From contig MNUT01000002.1 in assembly GCA_001871165.1 (NCBI GenBank), positions 1-52,102 on the forward strand: 52,102 nt of DNA, written 5' to 3'. Made by a program: the position numbers and the translations under genes. The notes under the pieces were generated by a model, which was not told the DNA's origin, did not search any database, and saw only the letters and a list, made by a program, of their open reading frames with translations. Shown piece by piece: positions 1 to 45,844 of the stretch. Origin of the DNA: Candidatus Falkowbacteria bacterium CG1_02_37_21 (GTDB taxonomy: Bacteria > Patescibacteriota > Patescibacteriia > Patescibacteriales > UBA12465). Every line of letters begins with the position of its first letter. The stretch's first letter is position 1.

Positions 1-999
1 AAAAGCTATTTCGAGGAGAACCAGCTATTGCCGAGTTCGATTACAATTTCTGCGCTAACCACAAGTCATCCCATAGTGTTGCACGGCTAATGGGTTCGGC
101 CCTCCTTCCATCTTTCGATGGAGTTCAGCCTGCTCATGGTTAGATCACCCGGCTTCGGGTCTTGTCCACGCGACGAATGTATCACTCCCGGGGCACTAAT
201 AAATTAGTGCTCACGAAAGCGATACACAAACGGGCTATTAACCCTCGCTTTCACTATACATGCTCTCCAAAGGAGATTATGTTAGCCACGTAGAACAAAC
301 TCGTTGGCTCATTCTTCAATAGGCACGCCGTCACCCCTTGCGGGGCTCCGACTCTTTGTAAGTATATGGTTTCAGGTACTATTTCACCTCCCTCATCGGG
401 ATGCTTTTCACCTTTCCCTCATGGTACTAGTTCACTATCGATCATAAGAAGTATTTAGTCTTAGGCCATAGTCGGCCTGGCTTCAAACGGGATTTCACGA
501 GTCCCGCCCTACTTAAGAACACTAAAACGAAGTGACTTCTCTTTTCGCGTACCGGGCTATCACCGTCTCTGGCCGAGCTTTCCAACTCGTTCTGCTAAGA
601 GTAATCTTTTTTTACTTCGTCCTGTTGATCTGGCAACAGGTCTTAGGTCTTGCAACACCGAAAAAACATGTGGTTCCAGAACCTTCTGAAATAAATCCGG
701 CGAACCGGACTAATTTCTCAGTTATTTGGGTTTAGACTTCTCCCCTTTCGCTCGCCACTACTTGGGGAATAATTATTATTTTCTTTTCCTCCGGCTAATA
801 AGATGTTTCAGTTCACCGGGTCTTCCCGCCCTATCTTAAAGATTGGGCGTCCTCCGTCTTCAACGGAAGGGGTTTCCCCATTCGGAGATCCGCGGGTCAA
901 AGGTTGCTTGCCACCTCACCGCGGCTTATCGCAGGCTGCTACGTCCTTCATCGTCTTCTTATGTCAAGGCATTCACCATATACTCTTACTGAGATTTTC
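1..999 (-). rRNA. rrl: 23S rRNA, 5' portion (continues beyond the left edge); 5' end approximate
   Basis: Reverse complement contains conserved 23S 5'-domain motifs (TAAGAGTATATGGTGAATGCCTTG, GAACTGAAACATCT, CCCAAGTAGTGGCGAGCGAAA, GTACCATGAGGGAAAGGTGAAAAG, AATAGCTGGTTCTCCTCGAAATAGCT). Confidence 0.97.
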
Positions 1000-1161
1000 C
1001 CACGCTTTTATTTTTAATTAAAAACGTGTTTTTGATATCTTATTACAGCCCCTCTACCCCAGACGAAAAATTGAGATATTAGGATAAGACATCCAACTTA
1101 AATTATATTTTTATTTTCTTTACTCTAACATTGATTGTTAAGGGACTTTTTCTTAGGGCAC

Positions 1162-1184
1162 AAAAAAACCGCTGCTGAGCGGTT
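1162..1184 (-). terminator. Intrinsic terminator inside the 23S leader
   Basis: Minus strand AACCGCT-CAGC-AGCGGTT followed by a T tract. Confidence 0.7.
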
Positions 1185-1211
1185 CTAAGTAATCGCAAAA
1201 TGGCTGATTAA

Positions 1212-1253
1212 CTAGAATCGCTTTTTAATATGGTTTCTTACTTCTTTTTTCAT
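1212..1253 (-). CDS. Putative 13-aa leader peptide MKKEVRNHIKKRF
   Basis: ATG at 1253 and TAG at 1212-1214; its last codons form the 5' strand of a hairpin that competes with the terminator. Confidence 0.5.
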   Translation of the reverse strand: MKKEVRNHIKKRF

Positions 1254-1292
1254 ATTTTTGCGGCTTCTACAGCCCTAATAAAACTGATACTT

Positions 1293-1320
1293 ATTATAGC
1301 TGTTTTAAAAATTATGTCAA
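1293..1320 (-). promoter_or_regulatory. Sigma70-type promoter for the 23S leader
   Basis: TTGACA-16 nt-TATAAT on the minus strand. Confidence 0.8.
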
Positions 1321-1336
1321 GGGGGATAATATGTGC

Positions 1337-1364
1337 AAAAAATGGCCTATTTTAGGCCATTTTT
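1337..1364. terminator. Terminator after pilT
   Basis: AAAAAATGGCCTA-TTT-TAGGCCATTTTT inverted repeat. Confidence 0.7.
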
Positions 1365-1407
1365 ATTAAGGTTTTTGGGTATTTTAGCTCAAGGTAAGAT
1401 ATTACAA

Positions 1408-2448
1408 CTAAGCATCCAACATATTAGTATCAGTCATGTTATTAAGTGCTACTTCCCGATCAATCTCTCCGGTCTGATATAATTCTTTAATATGCTTATC
1501 CAAAGTAATCATCCCAACATTAGAGCCGGTCTCAATCGCCGTACTAATCTGAGCAATTTTTCCTTCTCTGATTAAGTTAGCGACCGCCGCATTATTAATT
1601 AAAACACCCCGAGCGGCAATGCGTCCGCCACTAAGACGCGGCAATAAGCGCTGAGAAATAATACCGGATAAAACATTGGACAATTGCGATTTAATTTGAC
1701 CCTGTTGATACGGCGGAAAAATATCTATAATACGATCAATAGTTTGCGCGGCACTATAAGTATGAAGAGTCGCCAACACAAGATGACCGGTTTCCGCTAA
1801 AGTGACGGCGGCGGCGATACTTTCTAAGTCACGCATTTCCCCTAACATAATCACATTAGGATCCTGACGTAAAATATGTTTAAGCCCGGCCGCGAAACTA
1901 ATCATGTCCGTGCCGAGTTGACGCTGAACAACCACACTTTTCTCCGGAGTAAAAACATATTCAATTGGATCTTCTAAGGTAACAATATTAGAACGACGGG
2001 TTTTATTAATATAATTTATCATGGCCGCCAAGGTAGTAGACTTACCGCAACCAGTCGGGCCAGTAATCAAAATAAAACCTTGAGGTAAATCCAGTAATTT
2101 CTGTATTACTGACGGCATACCTAGATCCTCTAAAGTCGGAGATAAATTACTGATCACACGGGCCACAATCACAATATTATTTTGAGCATAAGAAAAATTG
2201 ATACGATAACGATAATCCCCCACCTGATATCCAAGGTCAAAATCACGTTTATTTAAAAATGTCGCCGCTTGTTCTTTATTTAAAAGAACCTCCACAAAAG
2301 ATTGCAAATCAGGAGCAGTCAAAACGGGTAAGCCCTCCGCTTCCGACAATACTCCGTCTATTCTCAAAATAGGCTGCTGGCCAACTAAAAGATGGAGATC
2401 AGAAGCCTTCTTCTCGGCCGCTAATTGTAAAAGATTATTTATATCCAT
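1408..2448 (-). CDS. pilT: Type IV pilus retraction ATPase, PilT/PilU family
   Basis: ASDLHL, Walker A GPTGCGKSTT, TLEDPIE, LRQDPNVIMLGEMRD, AETGHLVLATLH. Confidence 0.93.
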   Translation of the reverse strand: MDINNLLQLAAEKKASDLHLLVGQQPILRIDGVLSEAEGLPVLTAPDLQSFVEVLLNKEQAATFLNKRDFDLGYQVGDYRYRINFSYAQNNIVIVARVISNLSPTLEDLGMPSVIQKLLDLPQGFILITGPTGCGKSTTLAAMINYINKTRRSNIVTLEDPIEYVFTPEKSVVVQRQLGTDMISFAAGLKHILRQDPNVIMLGEMRDLESIAAAVTLAETGHLVLATLHTYSAAQTIDRIIDIFPPYQQGQIKSQLSNVLSGIISQRLLPRLSGGRIAARGVLINNAAVANLIREGKIAQISTAIETGSNVGMITLDKHIKELYQTGEIDREVALNNMTDTNMLDA

Positions 2449-2490
2449 AAATATTTTATTGAAATTTTAAAATATTCTGCTAACTAGCTT

Positions 2491-3189
2491 TTACCAACCC
2501 ATTTTCTTCAAACCTTTGGCGGCAGCATCAACCTGCGCCTCCTGTTTAGAAGAACCATCACCATCGGCTATTTTTTCTTCGCCAATATAAAGTCCGACTG
2601 TAAATAACTTGGCGTGATCAGGGCCTTTCTCATCTAAAATTTTATAATGTGGCGTTAAACCCTTTTTTTCCTGAGACTTTTCTTGAAACAAGGACTTCGG
2701 ATCTAAATAAGACTGATCCCGTAAAATATCATCTAAACGAGAAACAATATTTTTAAGGACAAACTTTTTAGCAACTGCCATTCCCTGGTCCAAATAAATG
2801 GCCCCGATAATTGCCTCCATGGCATTAGCCAAAATAAACTGACGAGACTTTTTATTTTTATCACGAGCTTCCCCGCGCGATAAATATAAAGAATCTTCCA
2901 CATCCAATTGGTCAGCTACCTCGTAAAGCAAATGAGCATTAACTAAAGAGGCGCGCCAATTAGTTAAATCCCCTTCCGGTGTACTGGTAAAATTAAGATA
3001 TAAAAATTCCGTCACGATAATTTCTAAAACTGCATCACCTAAGAATTCTAATCTCTCATTATGACCAATACGAAAATCGGGATGTTCATTTAAATATGAA
3101 CGGTGTACTAAAGCTTGGCGCAATAAATCTTCATTCTTAAAAGTTACACCCAAATTTTTTTGTAACTTCAGAAAAGTATTATTAGTCAT
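2491..3189 (-). CDS. rnc: Ribonuclease III
   Basis: NERLEFLGDAVL signature; C-terminal dsRBD (GPDHAK...SKQEAQ). Confidence 0.97.
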   Translation of the reverse strand: MTNNTFLKLQKNLGVTFKNEDLLRQALVHRSYLNEHPDFRIGHNERLEFLGDAVLEIIVTEFLYLNFTSTPEGDLTNWRASLVNAHLLYEVADQLDVEDSLYLSRGEARDKNKKSRQFILANAMEAIIGAIYLDQGMAVAKKFVLKNIVSRLDDILRDQSYLDPKSLFQEKSQEKKGLTPHYKILDEKGPDHAKLFTVGLYIGEEKIADGDGSSKQEAQVDAAAKGLKKMGW

Positions 3190-3222
3190 AACTGATTATG
3201 TAAAATATAAAAAGACGGCGCT

Positions 3223-3759
3223 TTACTGAACACCGTCTCCAGTTTTATCTTTTATAATATCTTCATCTGCGGAGGCAACCGCAGCTCCTTCCGTTACCTT
3301 CGCTTGAGCGAGAGCCTCCGCTTCTTCTTTGTTATCTCTCTTCTGAATTTCCGGTTCGTCATTGTAGAGGGCACCTAATACACCATTCACAAATTTACCA
3401 GAAGCATCACCGCCAAAACTTTTGGCGACTTCAATGGCTTCATTAATAGCGACACGGGGCGGAATAGCCGTATGCAACAACTCATAAATACCTAGGCGCA
3501 AAATATTTCTATCAACGGCTGTAATTTGATCAAGAGGCCATTCCGTCGCATATTTAATAATATGCTTATTGATTACGTCTAAATTATTCTTAACACCAAT
3601 TACTAAAGCCCTGACAAAGCCCCCATCATCAAAATTTGGAGCAAAATTAGCAAAATTATCGGCAATTAAATTTTCAATATCACCATCCTTCCGACCGTTA
3701 AAATCCCAAGCAAATAAAGTCTGGAGAGCGATGGTTCGCGCTAAATGCCGATTAGACAT
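3223..3759 (-). CDS. nusB: Transcription antitermination factor NusB
   Basis: [45 protein letters not shown]. Confidence 0.96.
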
Positions 3760-3776
3760 AGTTTAAATTTTTAAAA

Positions 3777-3974
3777 TTATTTTTTCTTAGCGACGCGAGT
3801 CTTCATCTTAATGACTTCATGGCCATTATAATAACCACAAGCTGGGCATGCATTGTGCGGCTTAAGAGCTTTACCGCATTTTGGGCACTTATTTAAAACT
3901 ATCTTCTTCAAAGCTAAATGAGAACGACCGCGATGAGTAGCGGCATGAGTTTTCTGTTTCTTAGGATTAGCCAT
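3777..3974 (-). CDS. rpmF: 50S ribosomal protein L32 (zinc-binding form)
   Basis: MANPKK...CPKCG...PHNACPACGYY. Confidence 0.95.
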   Translation of the reverse strand: MANPKKQKTHAATHRGRSHLALKKIVLNKCPKCGKALKPHNACPACGYYNGHEVIKMKTRVAKKK

Positions 3975-4039
3975 ATTATTAATTTAAATCTTTTATTATT
4001 TAATTTTAGTATAACTTAATGCTGTTATTAGTCAATTGC

Positions 4040-5890
4040 TTAAACGGCGGATACCGGGTCGGGATTTGCCCCTGGTTTAGCGCCAACAATCTTCTCAAAC
4101 TCTTCACGCTCAATAGTTTCCTTGTCTAATAACACTGCTACAATTTTTTCTAGAGCATTTTTTTGTTCGTTAATGATTGCTACTGCCTTTACTTCTCCTT
4201 GCATAATAAAACCAGAAATTTCTTCATCAATTCTTTCCGCTACTTTTTCGCTGTAATTTCTTTGTTCATGAATTTCACGACCGAGGAAAATCATTTCTTC
4301 TTTTTCGCCGTAAGTACGGGAACCTAAATTATCACTCATACCATAATCAGTTACTAGGCGACGTGCTATTTCGGTCGCCCGACGTAAATCAGAAGTAGCT
4401 CCGGTCGTAACTTCACCATATATTTTTCTTTCTACTAAGTGACCAGCGAGCAGTACGGCAATTTCATCAATAAATTCTGACTTAGCATGCATGTGACGAT
4501 CTTCCGCGGGGACTTTCAAAGTATAGCCCCCGGCGCTACCGCGAGAAATAATGGAAATTTTGTGAACCGGATCAGCGTTAGGTAAATAATGCGCCACTAA
4601 AGCATGCCCCGCTTCATGATAGGCGGTAATTTGTTTTTCTTTATCAGTAATAACTCGGCTACGGCGTTCCGGACCAATCATAACTTTTTCAATCGCTTCA
4701 AACATATCTTCATTAACTATTTCTTTCTTACTATTTCGGGCTGCTAAAATAGCCGCCTCATTAAGCAGATTCGCTAAATCAGCACCAGAAAATCCCGCCG
4801 TCCGTTCCGCAATAGTGCGCAAATTAGCATCTTTAGCTAAAGGTTTTTTCTGAACATGAACTTTTAGAATTGCTTCTCTGTCATTTAAATCTGGTAAATC
4901 AATCGTTACTCGTCTATCAAAACGGCCGGGACGAAGCAAGGCTGGATCTAGAACATCCGGGCGATTAGTGGCAGCAATAACTATAATATTTTGCGTCGGT
5001 TCAAAGCCATCCATCTCCACCAAAATTTGATTTAAGGTCTGTTCACGTTCATCGTGACTACCACCTAAACCAGCGCCACGCTTACGACCAACCGCATCAA
5101 TTTCATCAATAAACAAAATACAAGGAGCATTATGTTTAGCCTTATCAAATAAAGAACGCACGCGACTAGCGCCCACACCGACAAACATTTCTACGAATTC
5201 CGAACCGGACATATGGAAAAATGGCACTTGCGCTTCTCCGGCCACAGAACGAGCCAGCAAAGTTTTACCGGTACCAGGCGCTCCTAACAATAAAACGCCA
5301 CGAGGAATTTTGGCACCTAGCTCATGAAATTTTTTAGGAAAACGTAAAAATTCCACAATCTCTTGCAATTCTTCTTTAGCTTCTTTAGAACCGGCGACAT
5401 CTTTAAAGGTTGTCCGATTTTTAGCGTCAGGACGAAAATCTTTAGCAGTAGACTGGCCAAAACTCATAGCGCGAGAATTAGCATTCTGTAAACCGCGCAT
5501 CATAAAAAATAAAAAAACACCGATTAAGACCACCGGCAAAACAAAAGGTACAATAGTGGTTAGCCAATAATCCCAGCCACTTTCATCCGCAACAGAAATC
5601 TTAACATCCGCTAACTTATCTGAAGCGACATTAAAATTAGCTAGTAAAGAAGATAATGACTCTCCCGTTTCCTTACGTACATTTTCCCTAGTATCATCTT
5701 TTAATGTTACCTCTAAAGTATCTCCTCGGACGACAATGCTTGAAACTTGCCCGTCGTTGAGAGTACTGATCATGTTTTCAATACCAACCGTCGCGATTTT
5801 TTCATCCGATCCGGAAAAAGAACTAAAAAGAGCCGCCAGTAGCAGAAAAACTACGAAAAATATAAAAAAATTTTTAATTAATTTCTTCAT
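4040..5890 (-). CDS. ftsH: ATP-dependent zinc metalloprotease FtsH (start placed at ATG 5890)
   Basis: Two TM segments, [33 protein letters not shown]; TATAAT 7 nt upstream of ATG 5890. Confidence 0.97.
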
Positions 5891-5930
5891 AATCTTAATT
5901 ATAGACACAAAAATCTCTTTTGGCAATTAT

Positions 5931-5956
5931 AAAAATACCCAATTTTGGGTATTTTT
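5931..5956. terminator. Terminator after the S1 gene
   Basis: AAAAATACCCAA-TT-TTGGGTATTTTT. Confidence 0.65.
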
Positions 5957-5962
5957 ATTTTT

Positions 5963-7222
5963 TTATTTATCTTTCTTGGTAGCCTTCTCCGACTTATCAA
6001 CCTTGGTCTTCTTCTCAACCTTTACTTTCTCCTTATCTTCTTTATCAGACTCATCACTCTTTGTATTTTTTTCTTTAGAAGATTTAGCGGACTTAGAAAC
6101 TTTAGCTCCGTCTGAAGCTAACTTCAAACCCAAACGATGTTCACTCGGAGAAATGCTAACTACTTCAAAATTCTTAATTTCACCAGACTGATATAATTCA
6201 CTCAACTTATCTTTAGCACCCAAATTTAATTGACTAACATGCGCCAAACCATGAATTTCTTCATCCAGCTTAACAAAAAGTCCAAAAGGATTAATCTTTA
6301 AAATTTCTCCGGAAACAACCTGTCCAATCTGATATTTGGCACTCGCCTCTAACCAAGGATCCTTTAATAATCTCTTAGCACTCAAGAAAACTTTGGCGCC
6401 ATCAATGGAAATAATCTCTACAGAAATATCATCACCAACCTGATACATATCATTAGGAGAATCAATTCTCTGCCAAGCTAATTCCGAAATATGAATTAGA
6501 CCTTCAATATTTTCACCGAAGGAAACAAAAACTCCAAAATTGGTAATCGCCGTAATCTTGCCATCAACCGGCATACCGACGCGATATTTATCCAAAGCTG
6601 GTCGTTGTTTTTTATTCCAAACATCTTTTTCGCTGAAAATAATTTTATTTTCTTCTTCGTTCAGAGTAATAACAGCCACTTCAAATTCTTGACCAACAAA
6701 AGATTTTAATTTTTCTAAAATTCTACTCTTATCACCACCGGCAATACGGGGATAATTATCTGGCGCTAATTGTGAAACCGGCAAGAAACCGTCAATTTGT
6801 CCGTAACGGCTCAAAAGTCCACCCTTATTAGCATCAACAATCTTAACCTTAATAGTAGTTTTATCTTTAAGCGCTGCATGTAGTTTTTCCCAAGCTTTTT
6901 CCTGACCAACCAAACGAAAAGACAATTCTAATTCACCATTTTCATTTTCCGCATCAATAACTGCTGCCTCAATTTCATCACCTGACTTTAAATTGGCAAA
7001 TTCTTCTACTTCATTATAAAGTTCCGGGCCACGAATAATACCCATTAAAACACCATTGATATCCATCTTCACTTCTGACTTAGAAGCGGTCACAATTACA
7101 CCCTTAACAATCTCTCCGACCTGAGGGATTTTAATATCATCTTTGGCTAATAATTTTTCAAACTCATCGCTAGCAGCGACATCGTTTGTTTTGTTTTCTT
7201 CCTCTTTATTATTGTTTCCCAT
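5963..7222 (-). CDS. rpsA: 30S ribosomal protein S1 (four S1 domains, charged tail)
   Basis: Repeated S1 motifs NKGGL..GFLPVSQ, FGVFV..EGLIHISEL, FGLFV..GLAHVSQ. Confidence 0.85.
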   Translation of the reverse strand: MGNNNKEEENKTNDVAASDEFEKLLAKDDIKIPQVGEIVKGVIVTASKSEVKMDINGVLMGIIRGPELYNEVEEFANLKSGDEIEAAVIDAENENGELELSFRLVGQEKAWEKLHAALKDKTTIKVKIVDANKGGLLSRYGQIDGFLPVSQLAPDNYPRIAGGDKSRILEKLKSFVGQEFEVAVITLNEEENKIIFSEKDVWNKKQRPALDKYRVGMPVDGKITAITNFGVFVSFGENIEGLIHISELAWQRIDSPNDMYQVGDDISVEIISIDGAKVFLSAKRLLKDPWLEASAKYQIGQVVSGEILKINPFGLFVKLDEEIHGLAHVSQLNLGAKDKLSELYQSGEIKNFEVVSISPSEHRLGLKLASDGAKVSKSAKSSKEKNTKSDESDKEDKEKVKVEKKTKVDKSEKATKKDK

Positions 7223-7399
7223 ATTATATATATCTTTTTATACTACGCATCCAGCGACAGAAAAATCGCTCCGAGCAATAAAAAAAGCTATTTAAACCCG
7301 ATTTTATTGATTATCGAGCCCGACGGCCACCTCCTGCTTAACATTGAGCATTATAATCCGCCGGTATTCTTAGAGGTGTATATTAAATTGAATAATAGT

Positions 7400-7428
7400 A
7401 TTATAAGGAAAAATCTGGGATATGTCAA
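7400..7428 (-). promoter_or_regulatory. Sigma70-type promoter for S1, ~170-nt leader
   Basis: TTGACA-17 nt-TATAAT on the minus strand. Confidence 0.8.
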
Positions 7429-7518
7429 CCCAACAAAAGATAAAAATAGCCCTATAACAAATACCATTATTATGATATAATCTATTTACAATTTAATAAA
7501 ATTAAAAAAATATAATTT

Positions 7519-8322
7519 ATGACACAAACTATTAAAAATATCTTAGCTGGAGCGATTGCTGTAGCGGTACTGGCTATTGGCTATGCTTCGTTAAGTTATG
7601 TTAGTGCTTATAGTAAAGTAATAGAACCTTCTTCCTTCCGGAGTTTTTCCGTCACCGGTGAAGGAAAAATTACAACCGTACCTGATATCGCAACTTTTGA
7701 CTTCCAGGTAATTACTGAAGGAGACAGAGATGTGACTACCCTGCAAACTAAAAATACCAATGACACTAACAAGGTCATAGCTTTTATCAAAGACCAGGGA
7801 GTTGATGAAAAAGATATAAAAACTCAGTATTATAATGTTAATCCTCGTTATACAAGTTATCGTTGTGTGACACCTATGTTTAGTAATGATGGTGTTGCTA
7901 AAGCAGATGTCTGCCCGCCACCTTCAATCGTCGGTTACACTGTTAGTCAGTCAGTTAGCGTAAAAATAAGAGACTTTAGTAAAATCGGTGATATTATGGG
8001 AGGGGTAGTAACTAATGGCGCTAATCAAGTTGGTTCACTGTCATTTACTGTTGATGATTCCGATCAGGCTCATGACCAGGCTCGCGCTGAGGCTATTGCC
8101 AAGGCCACGACTAACGCTGAGTCTATTGCTAAAGAAGGTAAATTTAAAGTTGGACGACTACTAGGTATTCAGGAAGGCTCTAATTCTCCAATTTATTACA
8201 AAGCAATGGCTACAATGGAAATGGACTCTAACGGTGTAGGCGGTGGTGCCGCCGCTCCAAGTATTCAACCCGGTTCACAAGAAGTGACGGTAACAGTAAC
8301 AATGCAATACGAAATTCAATAA
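7519..8322 (+). CDS. SIMPL (DUF541/BP26-like) domain protein
   Basis: N-terminal TM; SVTGEGKITTVPDIA, IKTQYYNVNPRY, GANQVGSLSF, IQPGSQEVTVTV. Confidence 0.9.
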   Translation: MTQTIKNILAGAIAVAVLAIGYASLSYVSAYSKVIEPSSFRSFSVTGEGKITTVPDIATFDFQVITEGDRDVTTLQTKNTNDTNKVIAFIKDQGVDEKDIKTQYYNVNPRYTSYRCVTPMFSNDGVAKADVCPPPSIVGYTVSQSVSVKIRDFSKIGDIMGGVVTNGANQVGSLSFTVDDSDQAHDQARAEAIAKATTNAESIAKEGKFKVGRLLGIQEGSNSPIYYKAMATMEMDSNGVGGGAAAPSIQPGSQEVTVTVTMQYEIQ

Positions 8323-8346
8323 AAGAGAAAACTACAAATAAAAATA

Positions 8347-8380
8347 AAGGAGACTAGATATAACTCTAGTCTCTTTTTTT
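8347..8380. terminator. Terminator between convergent genes
   Basis: GAGACTAG...CTAGTCTC followed by a T tract. Confidence 0.65.
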
Positions 8381-8409
8381 GCGCCACATTGTAATGATGC
8401 CAAATATCT

Positions 8410-9069
8410 TTAGCTCCTAATTCTTTTAATAAGATACCCCGCTACTTCTTTAGCTCGAACTTTTAACATCTTATCCGGCTGACTTAATATGTAATCTTTC
8501 AACTGATCAATACGCAAAACCGGAAAATCTCCCACTGTGATATTCAATTCCAGAGGTTGCCCAGCAAAAACTACCAAAGCAAAAGCAAAATAATCATAGT
8601 GCCCTTCCCGAAGTAAATCGGCTACTTTAAAAGAATGAGTTTTAGACTGTTTAATGGGGTTATAGAATGTTTTAAAACGACTGTTTCTAGTCTTAGTCCA
8701 TTTCTTGTCCTCTCTATTACCATAAACGATTCCCTTATAGTTTTTCGTTTCAATAACAAAGATTCCTTTTGGCCCAATTAAGATATGATCTATCTGAGCT
8801 TTGTTAACTATACAGTCATTAATTAAGTACCAAGAATTATCCAATTCTTTCAACAACAATTTACTGACAGCATTTTCTCCTTTAGCCCCAGCGACTAATA
8901 TTTTATTTCTTTTAAAAAATGGCAGAGTTAAAAAACCTAACAAGCCGGCCCATAACATAAAACCGGTCGCCCAGAGGTACACCGCAATAGCCAAAATAAA
9001 GCCGGCAATAAGTCGGCGACGTCGCCAAATCCGGCGAAAACTACTTTGTGGCTTCAGAAGTTTGGACAT
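8410..9069 (-). CDS. Membrane-anchored NERD (nuclease-related) domain protein
   Basis: GAKGE, QIDHILIGPKGIFVIETKNYKG, NPIKQ; N-terminal TM helices. Confidence 0.88.
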   Translation of the reverse strand: MSKLLKPQSSFRRIWRRRRLIAGFILAIAVYLWATGFMLWAGLLGFLTLPFFKRNKILVAGAKGENAVSKLLLKELDNSWYLINDCIVNKAQIDHILIGPKGIFVIETKNYKGIVYGNREDKKWTKTRNSRFKTFYNPIKQSKTHSFKVADLLREGHYDYFAFALVVFAGQPLELNITVGDFPVLRIDQLKDYILSQPDKMLKVRAKEVAGYLIKRIRS

Positions 9070-9272
9070 AATACTATTTTATCATTTTTATGAAAGGCTA
9101 CCAAGCTAAAAGTGAAACTGACAACAGACTAGCTCTTTTATAGAATAAAAACCTAACAAAGTAAAGCTATATCTCTTCAAACTCAACTTGACAAGAGCAA
9201 ATTTATGTGTAAAAATAATTTGAACTAACTAGTCGTTCATTCACAATTCATCAACCAAACAAGGAAAGATCT

Positions 9273-9692
9273 ATGAAAAAAACTAGACCAAATCCAAATG
9301 AAGATTTTTCAAAAATTACTCTTGCTGTTGTGCCTCCTCCCAGGATTGTATGTCCATTATGCCATGGTTGCTTAGCAACTCATGACACAAGTGCTGTTTA
9401 CTACACAGCGAAAAAGGGGCATATTAATAAAACAATCGCTGCTCATTATTACTGCTTGCATGAGCTAAAAAAAACGCCAAACAGTTATTTTGGTGATGTA
9501 AAGTTGTCGGCGGCGATGCCGAAAAATTATAGTTTAGAAAGTTATTTGCGAGAGTTAAAAGAAGTTCTTTTGCCTAAACAAATAGGTAATCCTAGGGTGG
9601 AAAGAACACTACAAATTGTTCAAGCTCTATTTTTCGAAGGCTTTCATGAATCCTTCGTAAAAATGTTTTTCATCGCAAAAAAAATCATGTGA
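9273..9692 (+). CDS. Hypothetical protein with possible Zn-binding motif
   Basis: CPLC...HYYC; AAGGA upstream and TTGACA promoter-like sequence at 9188. Confidence 0.55.
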   Translation: MKKTRPNPNEDFSKITLAVVPPPRIVCPLCHGCLATHDTSAVYYTAKKGHINKTIAAHYYCLHELKKTPNSYFGDVKLSAAMPKNYSLESYLRELKEVLLPKQIGNPRVERTLQIVQALFFEGFHESFVKMFFIAKKIM

Positions 9693-9791
9693 ATATTAAA
9701 AAGAAGGTTGACGAAAAAATCGTCAAAGAAATAAAAACAATTTTTAAGCCATAACCCTGCACCCGTTCATTAATTTTGAACGGGTCTTTTT

Positions 9792-10355
9792 TTAAATAAT
9801 ACTCAAGTTTATTTTCTTTAATTCCCTTCTCAATGCCAGATAGCCCGGTTTTTCTTTAGCCACTAACTGCCAAAATTTAGCAGAATGATTCATCTCACCC
9901 AGGTGACAAAGCTCATGCACAATTATATAATCACTTAACTCCGGTGGTAAAAAAATCAAACGATAATTAAAATTAAGATTTTTTAAACGAGAACAACTGC
10001 CCCAGCGAGTTGATTGATTTCTAATACTAAAACGCCGGAATTTAAAAGCATAATTTTTATTTAAAACTGCTATTCTATTTCTAACTAGTTCCTCGGCTTG
10101 AGCTTTATATTGTTTATATTCCGAACCATCATCTAAAACTGGAGCCGGCAAATTTTTAAAATAATCCTGTTTCTTCAAAATCCAATCGGCATGTTCATTA
10201 ATAAAATGCAGCACCATTTTCTGACTAATATATAGAGGAGCACTCACCCTAACTGTGGTGTCACGACGAATAGTCAAACGTAAACGCCTGAAACGTCTAT
10301 GTCTGTTAAAAATATATTTTATTGTTCTCCCTTGAATTTTTAATTCTGACTCCAT
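9792..10355 (-). CDS. YgjP/DUF45 (M48-like) metallohydrolase
   Basis: TRWGSCS, LNFNYRL, DYIIVHELCHL..MNHSAKFW. Confidence 0.9.
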   Translation of the reverse strand: MESELKIQGRTIKYIFNRHRRFRRLRLTIRRDTTVRVSAPLYISQKMVLHFINEHADWILKKQDYFKNLPAPVLDDGSEYKQYKAQAEELVRNRIAVLNKNYAFKFRRFSIRNQSTRWGSCSRLKNLNFNYRLIFLPPELSDYIIVHELCHLGEMNHSAKFWQLVAKEKPGYLALRRELKKINLSII

Positions 10356-10942
10356 AAATATTAAGCACTCCAAGTTCTTAACAACATCTAAATCATAGCA
10401 TAAAAAAAACCACTAACTCATAGAATTTAAAAGTGCATTGTCTGCGAGGATTTATTTCAACCCACTTTTAGTGTTTTTTTCGCTTGTCGCTACTAAAAAC
10501 AAATCTATAAGTTAATGGCAACCTTAATTCACTTCCCTAACTAACACATTCACAACTCCAAGGGGTGACAGAATCGGTCAGCTTTCCATCACGAATAATT
10601 AGATATTATTGTAAGCACTATTATTTGTCAATGACTCTATGGGTTGTCTCTATGGGTTGCGTGACTAGGTTTTAGTCGTATAAAAAAGCCCCATACAAGT
10701 CGGGGCTTAGACTTTAAGTGGCTTAATTAGTTTAGTAGCTTTTGGATTTTTCTGGTTGGAAAACTTGCCTAAGGCAAGCCGACGACAAAAAAGTTCGTTC
10801 AAGGCACTCAAAACATTGAGTGCTTTTATTTTTATAAAATAAGGCTCAACTGTGATAATATAAAATTACCATGGTTAAACGATATTGCTATTTAACCTGA
10901 TAAAGAGTTAAAGTATTAATAATATTCATAATTATAAGTGCT

Positions 10943-11917
10943 ATGTTTTTCGTCTATATTCTGTTGCTCATTATTGCTTCCGGCTGGTTTTCCGGCATGG
11001 AGATTGCTCTGTTTTCCTTGACTCCAGGCAGCGTAAAATCTCTGGTTATAGCCAAGAAAGTTAATGCCAAGATCGTGCAGCAGGTTTTGAGCCACAAAAA
11101 GCGACTGCTAGTAATTCTCTTGCTCGGCAATAATGTCGTTAACGTTCTGATTGCTTCTATGACTAGCTTATGGGTGAATGAGAGATTTTCTAATGGCGCC
11201 TTAGGTATAGCGACCGGAGCAGTTACCATGTTGATTTTAATATTTGGCGAAATGTTTCCCAAAGCCTTCTGTCAGGCGCGAGCAGAAAAGATGGCTTTGT
11301 TGTTTGTGCCAATAATTAGATTTTTAGAAATAATTCTATACCCCATAGTTTTTCCTTTAGAAAAATTATTGATTTTAATGACGGGTAATAAAAAGCGAGC
11401 TCTAGTTTCCGAGCAGGAATTTCGCGCTTTAAGTAGAATCGCTGTGGAGCACGGCGTTCTGGATTTTAACGAACACGAGATGATTATGAATATTTTGGAA
11501 TTCGGTGATACTCCGGCTAAAACAATTATGACACCGCGCTATAAACTATCTATCGTTAACGGTGAAGCGGAGATAGATCAGATTGCCTATTTCATGGCTA
11601 AGGAGGGTTATAGTCGTTATCCGGTCTATAAAAACCAGGAAGACAACATTATTGGCTACATACATCTTATAGATGTCATGAAAGTACTTAATAGTGATAA
11701 CAGACAAGACGAATTAGCTAAATATATTAGCCCCATCATTAAAGTTGATGAGAATATAAAAATTTATAGTGTCTTTAAAAAGATGATAAAAAAGCGGACA
11801 CATGTGGCCGCTATCTATCGTGATAAGGACAAGCTCGTCGGCCTGATAACGCTAGAAGACATTTTAGAGGAGATAGTGGGAGAGATAGAAGATGAAAATG
11901 ATAATGAGAGAAGTTGA
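10943..11917 (+). CDS. CNNM (DUF21)-CBS domain protein, hemolysin/CorB-like
   Basis: FSGMEIALFS, ILLGNNVVN, LIFGEMFPK, YSRYPVY, GLITLEDILEEIVGEI. Confidence 0.92.
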   Translation: MFFVYILLLIIASGWFSGMEIALFSLTPGSVKSLVIAKKVNAKIVQQVLSHKKRLLVILLLGNNVVNVLIASMTSLWVNERFSNGALGIATGAVTMLILIFGEMFPKAFCQARAEKMALLFVPIIRFLEIILYPIVFPLEKLLILMTGNKKRALVSEQEFRALSRIAVEHGVLDFNEHEMIMNILEFGDTPAKTIMTPRYKLSIVNGEAEIDQIAYFMAKEGYSRYPVYKNQEDNIIGYIHLIDVMKVLNSDNRQDELAKYISPIIKVDENIKIYSVFKKMIKKRTHVAAIYRDKDKLVGLITLEDILEEIVGEIEDENDNERS

Positions 11918-11995
11918 GGGGGGAGGTAGGTGTGAGGGGCTGAGTTGCAAGGGGCGGATTTAGCTTTGGTTAAATATTAATAATTTTTTGATGTT

Positions 11996-12022
11996 AAAAA
12001 ACAGCCTGGGACGGCTGTTTTT
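11996..12022. terminator. Bidirectional terminator
   Basis: AAAAAACAGCC-TGGGAC-GGCTGTTTTT. Confidence 0.65.
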
Positions 12023-19701: not shown

Positions 19702-20871
19702 ATGAGTATCTATAAACGAAAAAATAAATGGTGGGTAGACTTTAGCTTTCAAAATAAACGCTATCGTTTCTGTAGTCCGGAAAATTCCGCTAGTGGTGCT
19801 AGAGCTTATGAGGGATTATTAAGACAAGGCCTATTAAAAGGAGAAAATATTTCTACCAAAATAGAGCCCTGTCCAGTTTTTTCAGCTTTCGCCGAAAAAT
19901 GGTTTATCAATTATGTTAAATCAAATAATAAGTTCTCTGAGTACTGCAATAAACAAAGCGTTTATAAAGTCCACCTTGAACCATTTTTTGGTAAATTAAG
20001 TCTTGATCAAATTACAGCTTATAAGATAGAAGAATTTAAGGCATTAAAGACCCAGTCTACTCTTGCCCCTAAAACTATCAATAAGATGCTCTCAACCCTC
20101 AGGAAAGCCTTAAATACGGCAGAGGAGTGGGGTTTACTAGTTTCTGTGCCCAAAATTAAGCTTCTAAAAGTACCACCTCAAAAATTTGATTATCTTTTAC
20201 CAGAAGAAGAAGACTTTCTACTAGAAAACACCGAAGGCATATGGCACAATATGATTCTATTAGCTCTTAAGACCGGATTAAGATTTGGCGAGATAATTGC
20301 TTTAAACTGGGAAGACATTGATTTCTCAAATAAACTCCTAACCGTTCGCCATTCCATTGTTCGAGGAATAATGGGAAGTCCAAAAAGTAACAAGATTAGA
20401 TATATTCCAATGACTGATTCTTTATTGGAAATGCTTTGGAATAAATCAAAAAATGAAGATTATATTTTTACTCTAGGAAACAATAAACCAATGAAGCAAA
20501 TTTATTGTTTAAAAAATATGACTCGCATTTGTAAGAAATTAAATATACGCAAAATAGGTTGGCACGTTTTACGCCATACTTTTGCTTCACGCCTAGCAAA
20601 CAACGGAGTTTCTATGAAAGTTATTCAAGAACTTTTAGGCCACTCCGATATTACCACGACAATGCGCTATGCTCATTTGTCGCCGATCACTCTTCGAGAA
20701 TCTATACGCACTTTAGATAATCGAAAAGCCATTGAATTAGAGATATGTCACAAAAATGTCACAAATGTCACAATCACTAATTTAAAAGAGACGGATTTAG
20801 CTCCGGTTAAATCTCAAATTTTCCCCGAAGATAAACAAAAACAGACATCTCTGTCTGTTAATGTTTTGTGA
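19702..20871 (+). CDS. Tyrosine recombinase/integrase
   Basis: Catalytic R (TGLRFGE), K (PKS), HVLRH, LGH, Y (TMRY); stop codon overlaps att. Confidence 0.96.
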   Translation: MSIYKRKNKWWVDFSFQNKRYRFCSPENSASGARAYEGLLRQGLLKGENISTKIEPCPVFSAFAEKWFINYVKSNNKFSEYCNKQSVYKVHLEPFFGKLSLDQITAYKIEEFKALKTQSTLAPKTINKMLSTLRKALNTAEEWGLLVSVPKIKLLKVPPQKFDYLLPEEEDFLLENTEGIWHNMILLALKTGLRFGEIIALNWEDIDFSNKLLTVRHSIVRGIMGSPKSNKIRYIPMTDSLLEMLWNKSKNEDYIFTLGNNKPMKQIYCLKNMTRICKKLNIRKIGWHVLRHTFASRLANNGVSMKVIQELLGHSDITTTMRYAHLSPITLRESIRTLDNRKAIELEICHKNVTNVTITNLKETDLAPVKSQIFPEDKQKQTSLSVNVL

Positions 20872-20890
20872 GCGGGTAACGGGAATCGAA
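20870..20890. repeat. att site within tRNA-Gly
   Basis: Identical to 13758-13778. Confidence 0.92.
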
Positions 20891-20942
20891 CCCGTCTCTT
20901 GAACTTGGCAAGCTCACATAATAACCACTATACGATACCCGC
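20871..20942 (-). tRNA. tRNA-Gly(GCC)
   Basis: Acceptor GCGGGTA/TACCCGC, anticodon loop TTGCCAA, T-loop TTCGATT. Confidence 0.95.
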
Positions 20943-20966
20943 AATTCTTCTGCTTTAAATCTAGCC

Positions 20967-21051
20967 TGGTGGTCCAGGTGGGAATCGAACCCACATGCCT
21001 GTTGGCACAACATTTTAAGTGTTGCGTGTATACCAGTTCCACCACTGGACC
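20967..21051 (-). tRNA. tRNA-Leu(TAA), CCA encoded
   Basis: Acceptor GGTCCAG/CTGGACC, loop CTTAAAA, long variable arm. Confidence 0.95.
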
Positions 21052-21071
21052 GTTTATCTTAGTATACTTTG

Positions 21072-21449
21072 TGGAGATGATGGGAATTGAACCCATGTCC
21101 AACCGGTTTCTGTAAATAAGTGTACAAAAGTAGTCCGTTTTGTTGTTTGACTAGTACCATAGGAAAACGAACGAAAAGCGATACTAGCGATCTTCCTATT
21201 GTTTCGAGATTAACCGGAAAGCGCGATTAAAGTCTAGTCTCATGATTATGACACCGAACGCCGCTTATGAAACCTGGGCGTCGTCGATGGTTGTGGCTAT
21301 ATTAAGCGACAACAGGAGCGTAGCTCGGAGTTAACCAAGTGAACGCTGTAGCCGATTTGGCATTTATGTTTTTTAGCCAGTTTTACGTGTTAGCTAAGCG
21401 CGTTTTGCTTATTTAGAGAAAGGTCCGGCTGTCGACGCCTGACATCCCC
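21072..21449 (-). ncRNA. ssrA: tmRNA
   Basis: 5' GGGGATG...TCGAC, 3' GGGTTCAATTCCCATCATCTCCA with G3-U70; tag frame 21361-21302; adjacent to smpB. Confidence 0.95.
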
Positions 21450-45458: not shown

Positions 45459-45697
45459 GGGTGCCTATCGGGAATTAGCGCGCTCAACCGCCGCCAGAAT
45501 TGCGGCGGTCTCGCTTGTCCAGGGTTGGCGTCCGATATGCCACCCGGCATATCGTCCGACGCTCTCCTTTTCGCTATTTCTTCCGAAATAGCTCAAGACT
45601 CGCTGCCAACCTGTCCGATTCCCCGCGACTACGTCGCTATAATAAAAATAATCCAGAAAATTCTGGATTATTTTTATTATGGGTGCCTATCGGGAAT
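45459..45697 (-). repeat. tRNA-His-linked ~222-bp structured mini-element (copy B)
   Basis: 17-bp direct repeat GGGTGCCTATCGGGAAT at 45459 and 45681; core homologous to 13540-13774. Confidence 0.85.
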
Positions 45698-45753
45698 CGG
45701 ACCCGAAATAACAGGACCACAACCTGCTGTGTTACCACTACACCATAGGCACC
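45682..45753 (-). tRNA. tRNA-His(GTG)
   Basis: G-1, acceptor GTGCCTA/TAGGCAC, C73, loop TTGTGGT; atypical T-loop TCCGATT. Confidence 0.92.
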
Positions 45754-45772
45754 ATTTGTTTCTTTTGAAACG

Positions 45773-45844
45773 TACGCCCGGAAGGAATCGAACCTTCGTC
45801 TAGAGCTTAGAAGGCTCTCGTTCTATCCGTTGAACTACGGGCGC
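45773..45844 (-). tRNA. tRNA-Arg(TCT)
   Basis: Acceptor GCGCCCG/CGGGCGT, loop CTTCTAA, T-loop TTCGATT. Confidence 0.94.

Follow-up and report, generated by a model that had tools for sequence, protein, structure and literature searches.

The leader of the 23S rRNA gene

The 5′ part of a 23S ribosomal RNA (rRNA) gene lies close to one end of contig MNUT01000002.1 from Candidatus Falkowbacteria bacterium CG1_02_37_21 (assembly GCA_001871165.1), and the present analysis deals with the leader that precedes it. The window means here the whole stretch of DNA that was analysed, namely positions 1 to 52,102 of the forward strand of this contig; the features considered are read along its minus strand. 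From promoter to gene, the leader comprises a sigma-70-type promoter, a leader open reading frame (uORF), an antiterminator hairpin, an intrinsic terminator, a boxA-like motif and the 23S gene itself (Table 1). The initial annotation of this DNA had already placed promoter, 13-codon reading frame, terminator, boxA-like motif and 23S gene on the minus strand, and every one of their coordinates is correct. It had read the arrangement as an attenuator operated by ribosomes. A ribosome-dependent transcription attenuator in the leader of an unlinked 23S rRNA gene is also the explanation favoured here, on the basis of sequence comparison and as a probable rather than a certain one.

Table 1. Features of the 23S leader and its surroundings (window positions)
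Feature	Position	Strand	Description
NusB gene	3759-3223	-	upstream of the 23S leader
RNase III gene	3189-2491	-	upstream of the 23S leader
PilT-like ATPase gene	2448-1408	-	upstream of the 23S leader; Pfam T2SSE
Intrinsic terminator of the upstream PilT-like gene	1361-1337	-	hairpin AATGGCCTA-AAA-TAGGCCATT followed by T6
Sigma-70-type promoter of the 23S leader	1320-1293	-	-35 TTGACA 1320-1315, spacer 16 nt, -10 TATAAT 1298-1293; 12/12 matches
Small 5′ untranslated region hairpin P1	1274-1262	-	GGCU-GUAGA-AGCC, upstream of ATG; from the genus alignment
Leader open reading frame (uORF)	1253-1212	-	ATG 1253-1251, 13 sense codons including ATG, peptide MKKEVRNHIKKRF, TAG 1214-1212
Region 2 (r2), antiterminator 5′ arm	1222-1206	-	spans the final two sense codons plus the stop; from minimum-free-energy folds
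Region 3 (r3), antiterminator 3′ arm	1194-1178	-	last 7 nt (1184-1178) double as the terminator 5′ strand
Intrinsic terminator (predicted activity)	1184-1162	-	AACCGCU 1184-1178, loop CAGC 1177-1174, AGCGGUU 1173-1167 (region 4, r4), 7-T run 1168-1162
boxA-like motif	1144-1135	-	CCCTTAACAA; downstream of the terminator
Conserved block	1129-1117	-	GTTAGAGTAAAGA; just downstream of the boxA-like motif, near-invariant in the genus alignment
23S rRNA gene, 5′ part	999-1	-	ended by the contig end; Rfam RF02541, 669.4 bits, model positions 1-872

The antiterminator and the terminator share a strand, since the partner of r2 contains the terminator 5′ strand. As the initial annotation had proposed, r2 can pair with r3; complementarity extends over 15 of 17 positions, and the resulting hairpin belongs to the minimum-free-energy (MFE) fold of positions 1290-1155 (-36.3 kcal/mol, z -3.86, with none of 200 shuffles as good). 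The core of r2 is a near-copy of the terminator 3′ strand, so that both are able to pair with r3. In the MFE fold of the window's leader, the terminator 3′ strand and its U-tract also pair with AGAAGCCGC (~1268-1260, upstream of the ATG), and GGGCU faces GCCCU; by eye, this long-range closure is absent outside the genus. The stem of P1, judged by eye and uncounted, changes on both sides in several relatives (GGUC..GACC, GCC..GGC and GGCGAU..AUCGCC).

The terminator behind the PilT-like gene sets the 23S leader apart as its own transcription unit; when 26 other loci of the genus were scanned, 15 had a similar hairpin with a T-run at the same position. Within positions 1-12000 of the window, promoters with 12/12 matches occur only twice, at the head of this leader and at 7428-7400 on the minus strand. 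Downstream of the boxA-like motif, the block GTTAGAGTAAAGA might resemble boxC or belong, as one strand, to the processing stem of 23S.

Conservation from genus to phylum

A BLAST search with the 341-nucleotide (nt) leader finds it in 31 of 36 genomes of the same genus, and 30 loci, representing 29 distinct sequences, were aligned. All 30 keep TTGACA, TATAAT, the ATG, an ungapped 13-codon frame ending in (K/Q)RF, a TAA or TAG stop, both terminator strands and the U-tract, while codons 2-10 and the terminator loop are variable. Over the 39 nt that follow the ATG, stop codons appear in the uORF frame in none of the 29 distinct sequences, against 22 of 29 in frame +1 and 26 of 29 in frame +2. Entropy by codon position amounts to 1.17/0.80/1.06, second positions being the least variable. 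Judged from sequence, this variation looks like that of a frame that must stay open and not like that of a conserved protein. The uORFs contain no regulatory codon run; only Lys is common, at position 3 and at positions 9-11, in an AT-rich background.

The start of the uORF seems, in its sequence context, to resemble a normal start of this organism. A T at -1 is found in 97% of the uORFs, the window's own included, and in 77% of the genome's own long open reading frames (ORFs), and the uORF context is A-rich at -6 and -5, with AAA as codon 3. A Shine-Dalgarno sequence precedes the uORF at only 4 of the 113 loci assigned to the element below, which is uninformative because the genome as a whole does without such sites: they are found in 7.3% of 425 long ORFs against a background of 5.9%, with starts crudely called as the first ATG of each. 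Upstream of the long ORFs the sequence is A/T-rich.

Searched with the same leader, 24 genomes of other families gave no convincing BLAST match; BLAST being blind outside the genus, covariance models and direct inspection were used there. The models are R1, built from the genus, and R2, a second one; the alignments are designated A1 and A2. Upstream of 23S, R1 matched full-length in 26 of the 29 loci first fetched. Of the 121 genomes of the order, 97 yielded a 23S 5′ end, and up to 600 nt upstream were read in 99 loci (L001 and L037-L134), two second copies included. Loci were scored by an automatic detector that asks for a perfect hairpin with at least three G-C pairs, together with at least five T, and for an ATG-initiated frame of 11-15 codons whose end falls 18-36 nt ahead of the stem. 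Among the 125 upstream regions in total, 113 are positive; for the order alone the figure is 87 of 99, or 88 when L077, which has a C between stem and T-run, is added. The predicted terminator found in 113 of the 125 regions is a GC-rich hairpin followed by 5-8 T.

A stricter terminator pattern sharpens this association, as a uORF of 11-15 codons stands ahead of 84 of 85 such terminators, compared with 4.1% when the upstream 150 nt are shuffled. In this stricter set, 69 uORFs have 13 codons, 10 have 12, four have 14 and one has 15. Their stop ends 24-34 nt before the CCGC core (mode 29) and is TAA in 53 cases, TAG in 16 and TGA in 15. The initial annotation had made conservation of the stop position in relatives a touchstone of its proposal, and the ATG, a length of about 13 codons and the stop in the antiterminator 5′ arm are indeed kept from genus to phylum.

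The 11 negative loci of the order fall mostly in one family, f8 (labels of families and genera are codes). Six of its seven loci have a different, AT-rich leader hairpin and the seventh has a terminator without a uORF; the others are single loci of f10, f12 and f26, and L134, a GC-rich 16S-tRNA-23S operon that looks foreign in its bin. In the six f8 leaders (L054, L068, L076, L085, L096 and L119), a consensus promoter is followed by an AT-rich hairpin with a U-run and by a boxA-like motif near 23S. A PilT-like gene precedes the f8 23S, yet the element is absent, and f8 looks as though, within the order, it had lost the device or replaced it. A linked 16S-23S operon was considered as the cause of absence and rejected: a 16S 3′ end lies upstream only in L134 among the order negatives read, and in 2 of 94 loci of the phylum. 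Besides L134 (G152:C37), L040 (G109:C6) is a foreign-looking second 23S copy, with a leader near-identical to those of the window's genus though G109 is filed under another family.

In wider sampling, R2 under strict filters was applied to two sets of 151 genomes each. It recovers the element in 31 genomes of the class sample (29 from outside the order) and in 10 of the phylum sample (9 from other classes); the E-values of the covariance models are rough. Inspection of the loci fetched confirmed a 12-14-codon uORF, a terminator and the downstream 23S motif in 24 of 28 for the class and 8 of 9 for the phylum. Since R2 is insensitive, the phylum was also surveyed directly, with 23S 5′ ends in 95 of 151 genomes providing 94 upstream regions. 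A broader detector, which asks for a uORF of 10-16 codons, a stop in an arm pairing with the terminator 5′ strand, and a terminator, is positive in 28 of the 94; all 28 belong to the 88 regions of other classes, and none to the six of the window's own class. As controls, the reverse strand gave 0 of 94, and shuffling the sequence upstream of terminators gave 11 of 610 (1.8%). In distant lineages, peptides and stem sequences differ while the 13-14-codon length and the geometry persist.

The position of the stop codon is the most constant trait of the element. It falls inside the antiterminator 5′ arm at 113 of 113 loci and begins 5-9 nt past the first pair of the arm. The last residues, counted under the stricter pattern, are SG (48), GG (14), RL (6), RF (5), SS (4), CG (3), RG (2) and others. 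Most families end in S-G (AGC GGU plus stop), the sister genus in K-R-L and the window's genus in K-R-F (A AGC GAU UCU AG), and the reading frame relative to the AGCG(G/A)UU core varies by lineage. Since ending and frame vary by lineage while the stop position is fixed, the conserved feature is the place where a ribosome would stop, not the peptide.

This constancy bears on the idea of an independent tiny gene, in which promoter, 13-codon ORF and terminator would make a short messenger or small RNA with the peptide or the RNA itself as its product, 23S would be transcribed from a separate downstream promoter and the alternative pairing would be incidental. Promoter, short ORF and terminator do also have the shape of a small gene, and downstream sequences that could serve as a promoter exist, namely TATAAT at 1107-1102 and a weak promoter-like site (9/12) at 1141-1113. 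Such a gene is nevertheless very unlikely, as its peptide would be unconserved while the position of its stop relative to the hairpin is conserved, and as r2 complements r3 with compensatory changes. The unit moreover lies always beside 23S, whatever the upstream gene, and before boxA in 100 of 113 loci. The start at TATAAT 1107-1102, which the initial annotation had named as the alternative that would undo its proposal, is rejected as a promoter for 23S, this -10-like hexamer not being kept even in the closest relative. In 112 of 113 loci the sole strong consensus promoter precedes the uORF, with at most one mismatch per hexamer and within 110 nt upstream of the ATG; the median distance from the end of the -10 hexamer to the ATG is 30.5 nt.

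Both helices are kept across the loci, with some compensatory changes, as the attenuator proposal had predicted of relatives. Pairing was counted in A2, a MAFFT alignment of 110 distinct sequences that was not fitted to any structure, with controls in which the partner was slid by 1-3 columns. For r2:r3, 87.4% of cells are paired, where the slid controls give 28-57%, and 20 cells show double changes (0 of 500 shuffles reach this). For the terminator helix r3:r4 the paired share is 91.6%, the controls giving 32-59%; its 24 double-change cells, a number that 0 of 500 shuffles reach, are spread over 5 of 8 pairs. In locus L082, r3 reads AACUGCU while r2 and r4 both read AGCAGUU, and coordinated changes in the three regions are also found in L087 and L120. 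The antiterminator is on average more stable than the terminator (-15.8 versus -9.8 kcal/mol), and is the more stable of the two in 111 of 113 loci. When the RNA is truncated, r2:r3 belongs to the MFE fold in 113 of 113 loci, and its pairing probability before region 4 exists, P(r2:r3), is 0.81.

The terminator also keeps a constant position relative to the boxA-like motif, which we take to resemble the boxA of rrn operons. Allowing at most one mismatch, CTTTAACAA occurs after the terminator and ahead of 23S in 100 of 113 loci; in 4 of 113 it precedes the end of the terminator. The prevailing order would make sense because a regulated terminator must precede the point at which polymerase becomes termination-resistant. 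A hairpin upstream of a boxA-like motif is also positioned like boxB; the present one has an invariant tract of 6-7 U and a competing helix.

A further alternative is a factor-dependent leader structure that would not be translated; the hairpins would then resemble boxB, act as a NusA/NusG site for pausing or termination, or serve as a site for protein binding or rRNA processing. Hairpins with a U-run before a boxA-like motif do occur without a uORF, in the 16S leaders of the genus and in the f8 23S leaders, and in the window the leader is closely preceded by the NusB and RNase III genes. This explanation is nonetheless quite improbable: it leaves unexplained an ATG that never varies, a frame that stays open (stops in 0 of 29 sequences, compared with 22 and 26 of 29 for the alternative frames) and the gene-like start context, and equally the 12-14-codon length across the phylum and the stop that always lies in the antiterminator arm.

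The element is specific to 23S. R2 gives one match per genome and, in the window, a single significant one (1162-1256, 75.3 bits). The upstream regions of 16S, for which the initial annotation had suggested a comparison, carry the element in 0 of 34 leaders, the window's own genome included (best R2 E-value 0.045); in these 34 genomes the 16S leaders have their own promoters and no uORF-terminator unit. Within the genus, the 16S leaders (L031-L034 and L254-L257, L256 being that of the window's own genome at G000:C11) display a TTGACA...TATAAAAT promoter, an AT-rich hairpin with seven T and the boxA-like GGAACCTTAAAAA, without any conserved ATG frame. An upstream segment near-duplicates, by eye, the 5′ strand of their hairpin, and these leaders may contain a different switch without a uORF.

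Turning to the neighbourhood, the initial annotation had called the 23S gene solitary. On the upstream side this is correct, since no 16S is present among the upstream genes and the 5′ end of the genome's 16S sits on a different contig (G000:C11); the 3′ side of 23S is lost at the contig end, so that the claim goes beyond the visible sequence there. The distance from 16S to the 23S leader is 75-79 kb in three relatives with both on one contig (G004, G006 and G028). A preprint reports unlinked rRNA genes as common in Patescibacteria (bioRxiv 10.1101/705046). In the window, NusB, an rRNA antitermination factor, and RNase III, an rRNA processing nuclease, are both encoded beside the 23S leader. 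In other families, the gene before the 23S leader resembles, by eye, the end of a PilT-like or RNase III gene. Close relatives (L174-L253) are often deposited as 'uncultured Gammaproteobacteria bacterium'; their PilT is 60-74% identical to records titled Falkowbacteria or Patescibacteria, and the titles look wrong. Elsewhere in the window lie a transfer-messenger RNA at 21449-21069 (minus strand; tag peptide AKSATAFTWLTPSYAPVVA) near tRNA-Leu and tRNA-Gly (window 20870-21449) and, further along, tRNA-Arg and tRNA-His (45681-45844, minus strand).

A candidate ribosome-dependent switch

Read as an attenuator, the leader has all parts of the geometry that the initial annotation had ascribed to ribosome-mediated devices, namely a uORF, a terminator, an antiterminator sharing one of its strands and a stop codon in the switching strand, the last in 113 of 113 loci. 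Comparative sequence data thus leave this interpretation supported. We infer that the uORF is translated, that the terminator is active, in which direction control is exerted, and that the physiological signal is the availability of ribosomes or of 50S subunits.

Polymerase would start at the consensus promoter and transcribe a 5′ untranslated region of ~25-30 nt followed by the 13-codon ORF. The last codons and the stop would form r2 of a hairpin of 16-17 base pairs, whose r3 would hold the 5′ strand of the terminator (r3:r4 plus U-tract). On an RNA without a ribosome, r2 would pair with r3 once the latter emerges, and this more stable hairpin would block the terminator; polymerase would then pass boxA, where it presumably becomes termination-resistant, and enter 23S. 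A ribosome at the last codons or at the stop would hold r2 in its mRNA channel, leaving r3 free, so that the terminator would form and an RNA of ~120 nt would be released. A ribosome covers ~12-15 nt on either side of its P site. With the stop codon in the A site, it would cover r2 and the next ~10 nt, that is the whole antiterminator 5′ arm, while r3, starting ~27 nt past the stop, would stay free of the ribosome. A ribosome that has merely initiated, or has stalled at codons 1 to ~7, would not reach r2. Translation to the stop would then mean termination, and an absent or late ribosome would mean read-through into boxA and 23S.

If leader translation represses 23S in this way, translational capacity would feed back negatively on large-subunit rRNA. 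The ORF being short, the outcome would be set by the speed at which a ribosome loads and follows polymerase, which makes the leader a plausible sensor of translational capacity. Feedback specific to the 50S subunit is attractive, although unproven, because elongation needs 50S and the device sits only before 23S. In its most explicit and more tentative form, the proposal is that the 23S precursor, while being made, serves for a short time as an mRNA: a 70S ribosome, for which free 50S is needed, would trigger termination by translating the 13 codons to the stop in step with polymerase, whereas an empty or 30S-only leader would read through, so that the leader would act as a cis-encoded sensor of large-subunit or ribosome supply.

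Several points weigh against the attenuator reading. Translation and termination are both predictions; a look for public RNA runs listed none, a result that is neutral as to expression. The mechanism would also impose a kinetic requirement, the ribosome having to be at codon 9 or so before region 4 is made. Double changes affect 3 of 7 r2:r3 pairs, a figure matched by 300 of 500 shuffles; covariation is modest because the helix cores are near-invariant, as a strand that has to match two partners should be. In its full-length form, the RNA at equilibrium divides between the two pairings (P(r2:r3) 0.50, P(r3:r4) 0.40). For the genus alignment, RNAalifold prefers a nested fold in which the distal antiterminator coexists with a 5-base-pair terminator. 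The mutual exclusion of the hairpins asserted by the initial annotation thus holds strictly for the basal r2:r3 helix and fails for its distal part. A simple terminator scan of the window omits the 1184-1162 hairpin, which a separate hairpin scan recovers; the simple scan also omits the canonical hairpin behind the PilT-like gene, and one may guess that both omissions come from stems extended into the T-run. As for distribution, f8 and a few other loci lack the element though protein genes precede their 23S, and none of the six same-class genomes in the phylum sample carries it. The detector thresholds were chosen after the first loci had been seen, although the shuffle and reverse-strand controls are low, and the genomes are related, so that the counts overstate independence. 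Finally, a RelA/SpoT homologue is present, and conventional growth-rate control or other controls may also act. RelA/SpoT is found in the window's genome (G000) and in 4 of 4 relatives tested, and a missing guanosine tetra- and pentaphosphate ((p)ppGpp) machinery is thereby rejected as the reason for the device.

The same hardware could sense translation stress, in that a ribosome stalled early or unable to elongate, owing to an antibiotic, an uncharged tRNA or a damaged 50S, would leave r2 free and induce 23S, while the leader, normally translated, would terminate most transcripts. This possibility overlaps with ribosome-supply control and is compatible with it. A ribosome on codons 1 to ~7 would indeed fall short of r2, the beginning of which lies around codon 11-12; most uORFs have AAA, or Lys, at their third codon, Lys is frequent at positions 9-11, and antibiotic-inducible leader-peptide attenuators are known. 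The inner codons, however, vary freely, without a codon run or a conserved arrest motif. There is, furthermore, no region 1 (an anti-antiterminator) to hold a default 'off' state: across the 113 loci none was found, the probability that r2 pairs upstream being 0.52 against 0.51 with the upstream sequence shuffled. More rRNA during amino-acid starvation would also oppose the usual response. Sensing of stress as the main function is therefore a minor, rather unlikely possibility next to the supply-sensing attenuator.

Should this more tentative reading of a cis-encoded supply sensor be true, the leader would set 23S, and with it 50S, synthesis in bacteria with unlinked 16S and 23S genes, and the element occurs in many lineages of Patescibacteria. 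How 16S and 23S output stay balanced with unlinked genes is a question posed in the preprint mentioned above (bioRxiv 10.1101/705046), and the attenuator would offer a concrete answer. The alignments and models (A1, A2, R1 and R2) define a new cis-regulatory RNA family in uncultivated bacteria whose gene regulation is almost uncharted. The element could also serve synthetic biology as a compact sensor of ribosome availability.

Relation to known systems

The 23S leader has the sequence features of leader-peptide attenuators in the broad sense, without two that mark the classical four-segment trp type, namely region 1 and a codon run. With the amino-acid attenuators (trp, his, leu, thr, pheA and ilv; Rfam has such families), it shares a promoter-proximal short ORF, a terminator before the gene and an antiterminator that shares a terminator strand; in both, a ribosome at the stop would cover region 2 and favour termination. 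Unlike them, it has no region 1, so that an untranslated leader should read through, it has no regulatory codon run, and its target is an rRNA. In Rfam 15, nothing matches positions 1000-1420 at the gathering threshold, and at E≤10 the maximum is 21 bits against thresholds of at least 50. The only match to a leader family is Phe_leader, on the opposite strand, with 17.4 bits against a threshold of 55.

Other attenuators also depend on the translation of a short leader ORF. In the antibiotic-responsive ones (erm, msrD, vmlR and yxjB), occupancy of the uORF decides between terminator and antiterminator, and the translation machinery is sensed and not a metabolite, as would be the case here. These systems rely on drug-dependent arrest at defined peptide motifs, terminate by default and target a resistance protein; the 23S leader, in contrast, has a peptide free to vary, a predicted default of read-through and the 23S gene as its target. 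In the pyrBI and pyrE attenuators, a ribosome that follows closely prevents the terminator, and translation means read-through. There, as in the proposed device, the outcome hinges on how closely the first ribosome trails polymerase in a short leader ORF. In the 23S leader, by contrast, ~27 nt separate the end of the ORF from the terminator, and its translation should favour termination.

Antitermination in rrn leaders relies on boxB-boxA-boxC together with NusB/NusE and other Nus factors. The 23S leader likewise has a hairpin followed by a boxA-like motif, and NusB is encoded nearby. Unlike in rrn leaders, the hairpin is a canonical terminator (6-7 U) with a competing hairpin, it is coupled to an ORF and it lies upstream of boxA, at a point where polymerase would still be unmodified.

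The initial annotation knew of no described attenuator on an rRNA gene. For the leader-peptide type, a full-text literature search agrees, since no publication turned up in which an rRNA gene is controlled by a leader peptide or uORF; a case of another type is the E. coli rrnB leader, in which an old in vitro study reportedly observed pausing and attenuation without a leader peptide. The new aspects are likely to be ribosome-mediated attenuation with an rRNA as target, a two-hairpin logic that is on by default, and the ribosome itself as signal. In textbooks, rRNA genes are untranslated transcripts controlled at initiation, and, as far as that search reaches, the ORF of the 23S leader would be the first leader-peptide control of an rRNA gene.

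A conceptual relative is the ribosome feedback regulation of rRNA synthesis (the Nomura model), in which translational capacity feeds back negatively on rRNA transcription without any leader ORF. To our knowledge, E. coli has no cis-acting ribosome sensor in an rRNA leader. The 23S leader would share with this model the idea of negative feedback, and with the rrnB leader the capacity of an rRNA leader to hold a pause or termination site. Unlike the Nomura model and the E. coli leaders, a dedicated device of uORF and terminator would supply such feedback with a mechanism that is direct and physical, and this embodiment would make an old idea of ribosome feedback directly testable.

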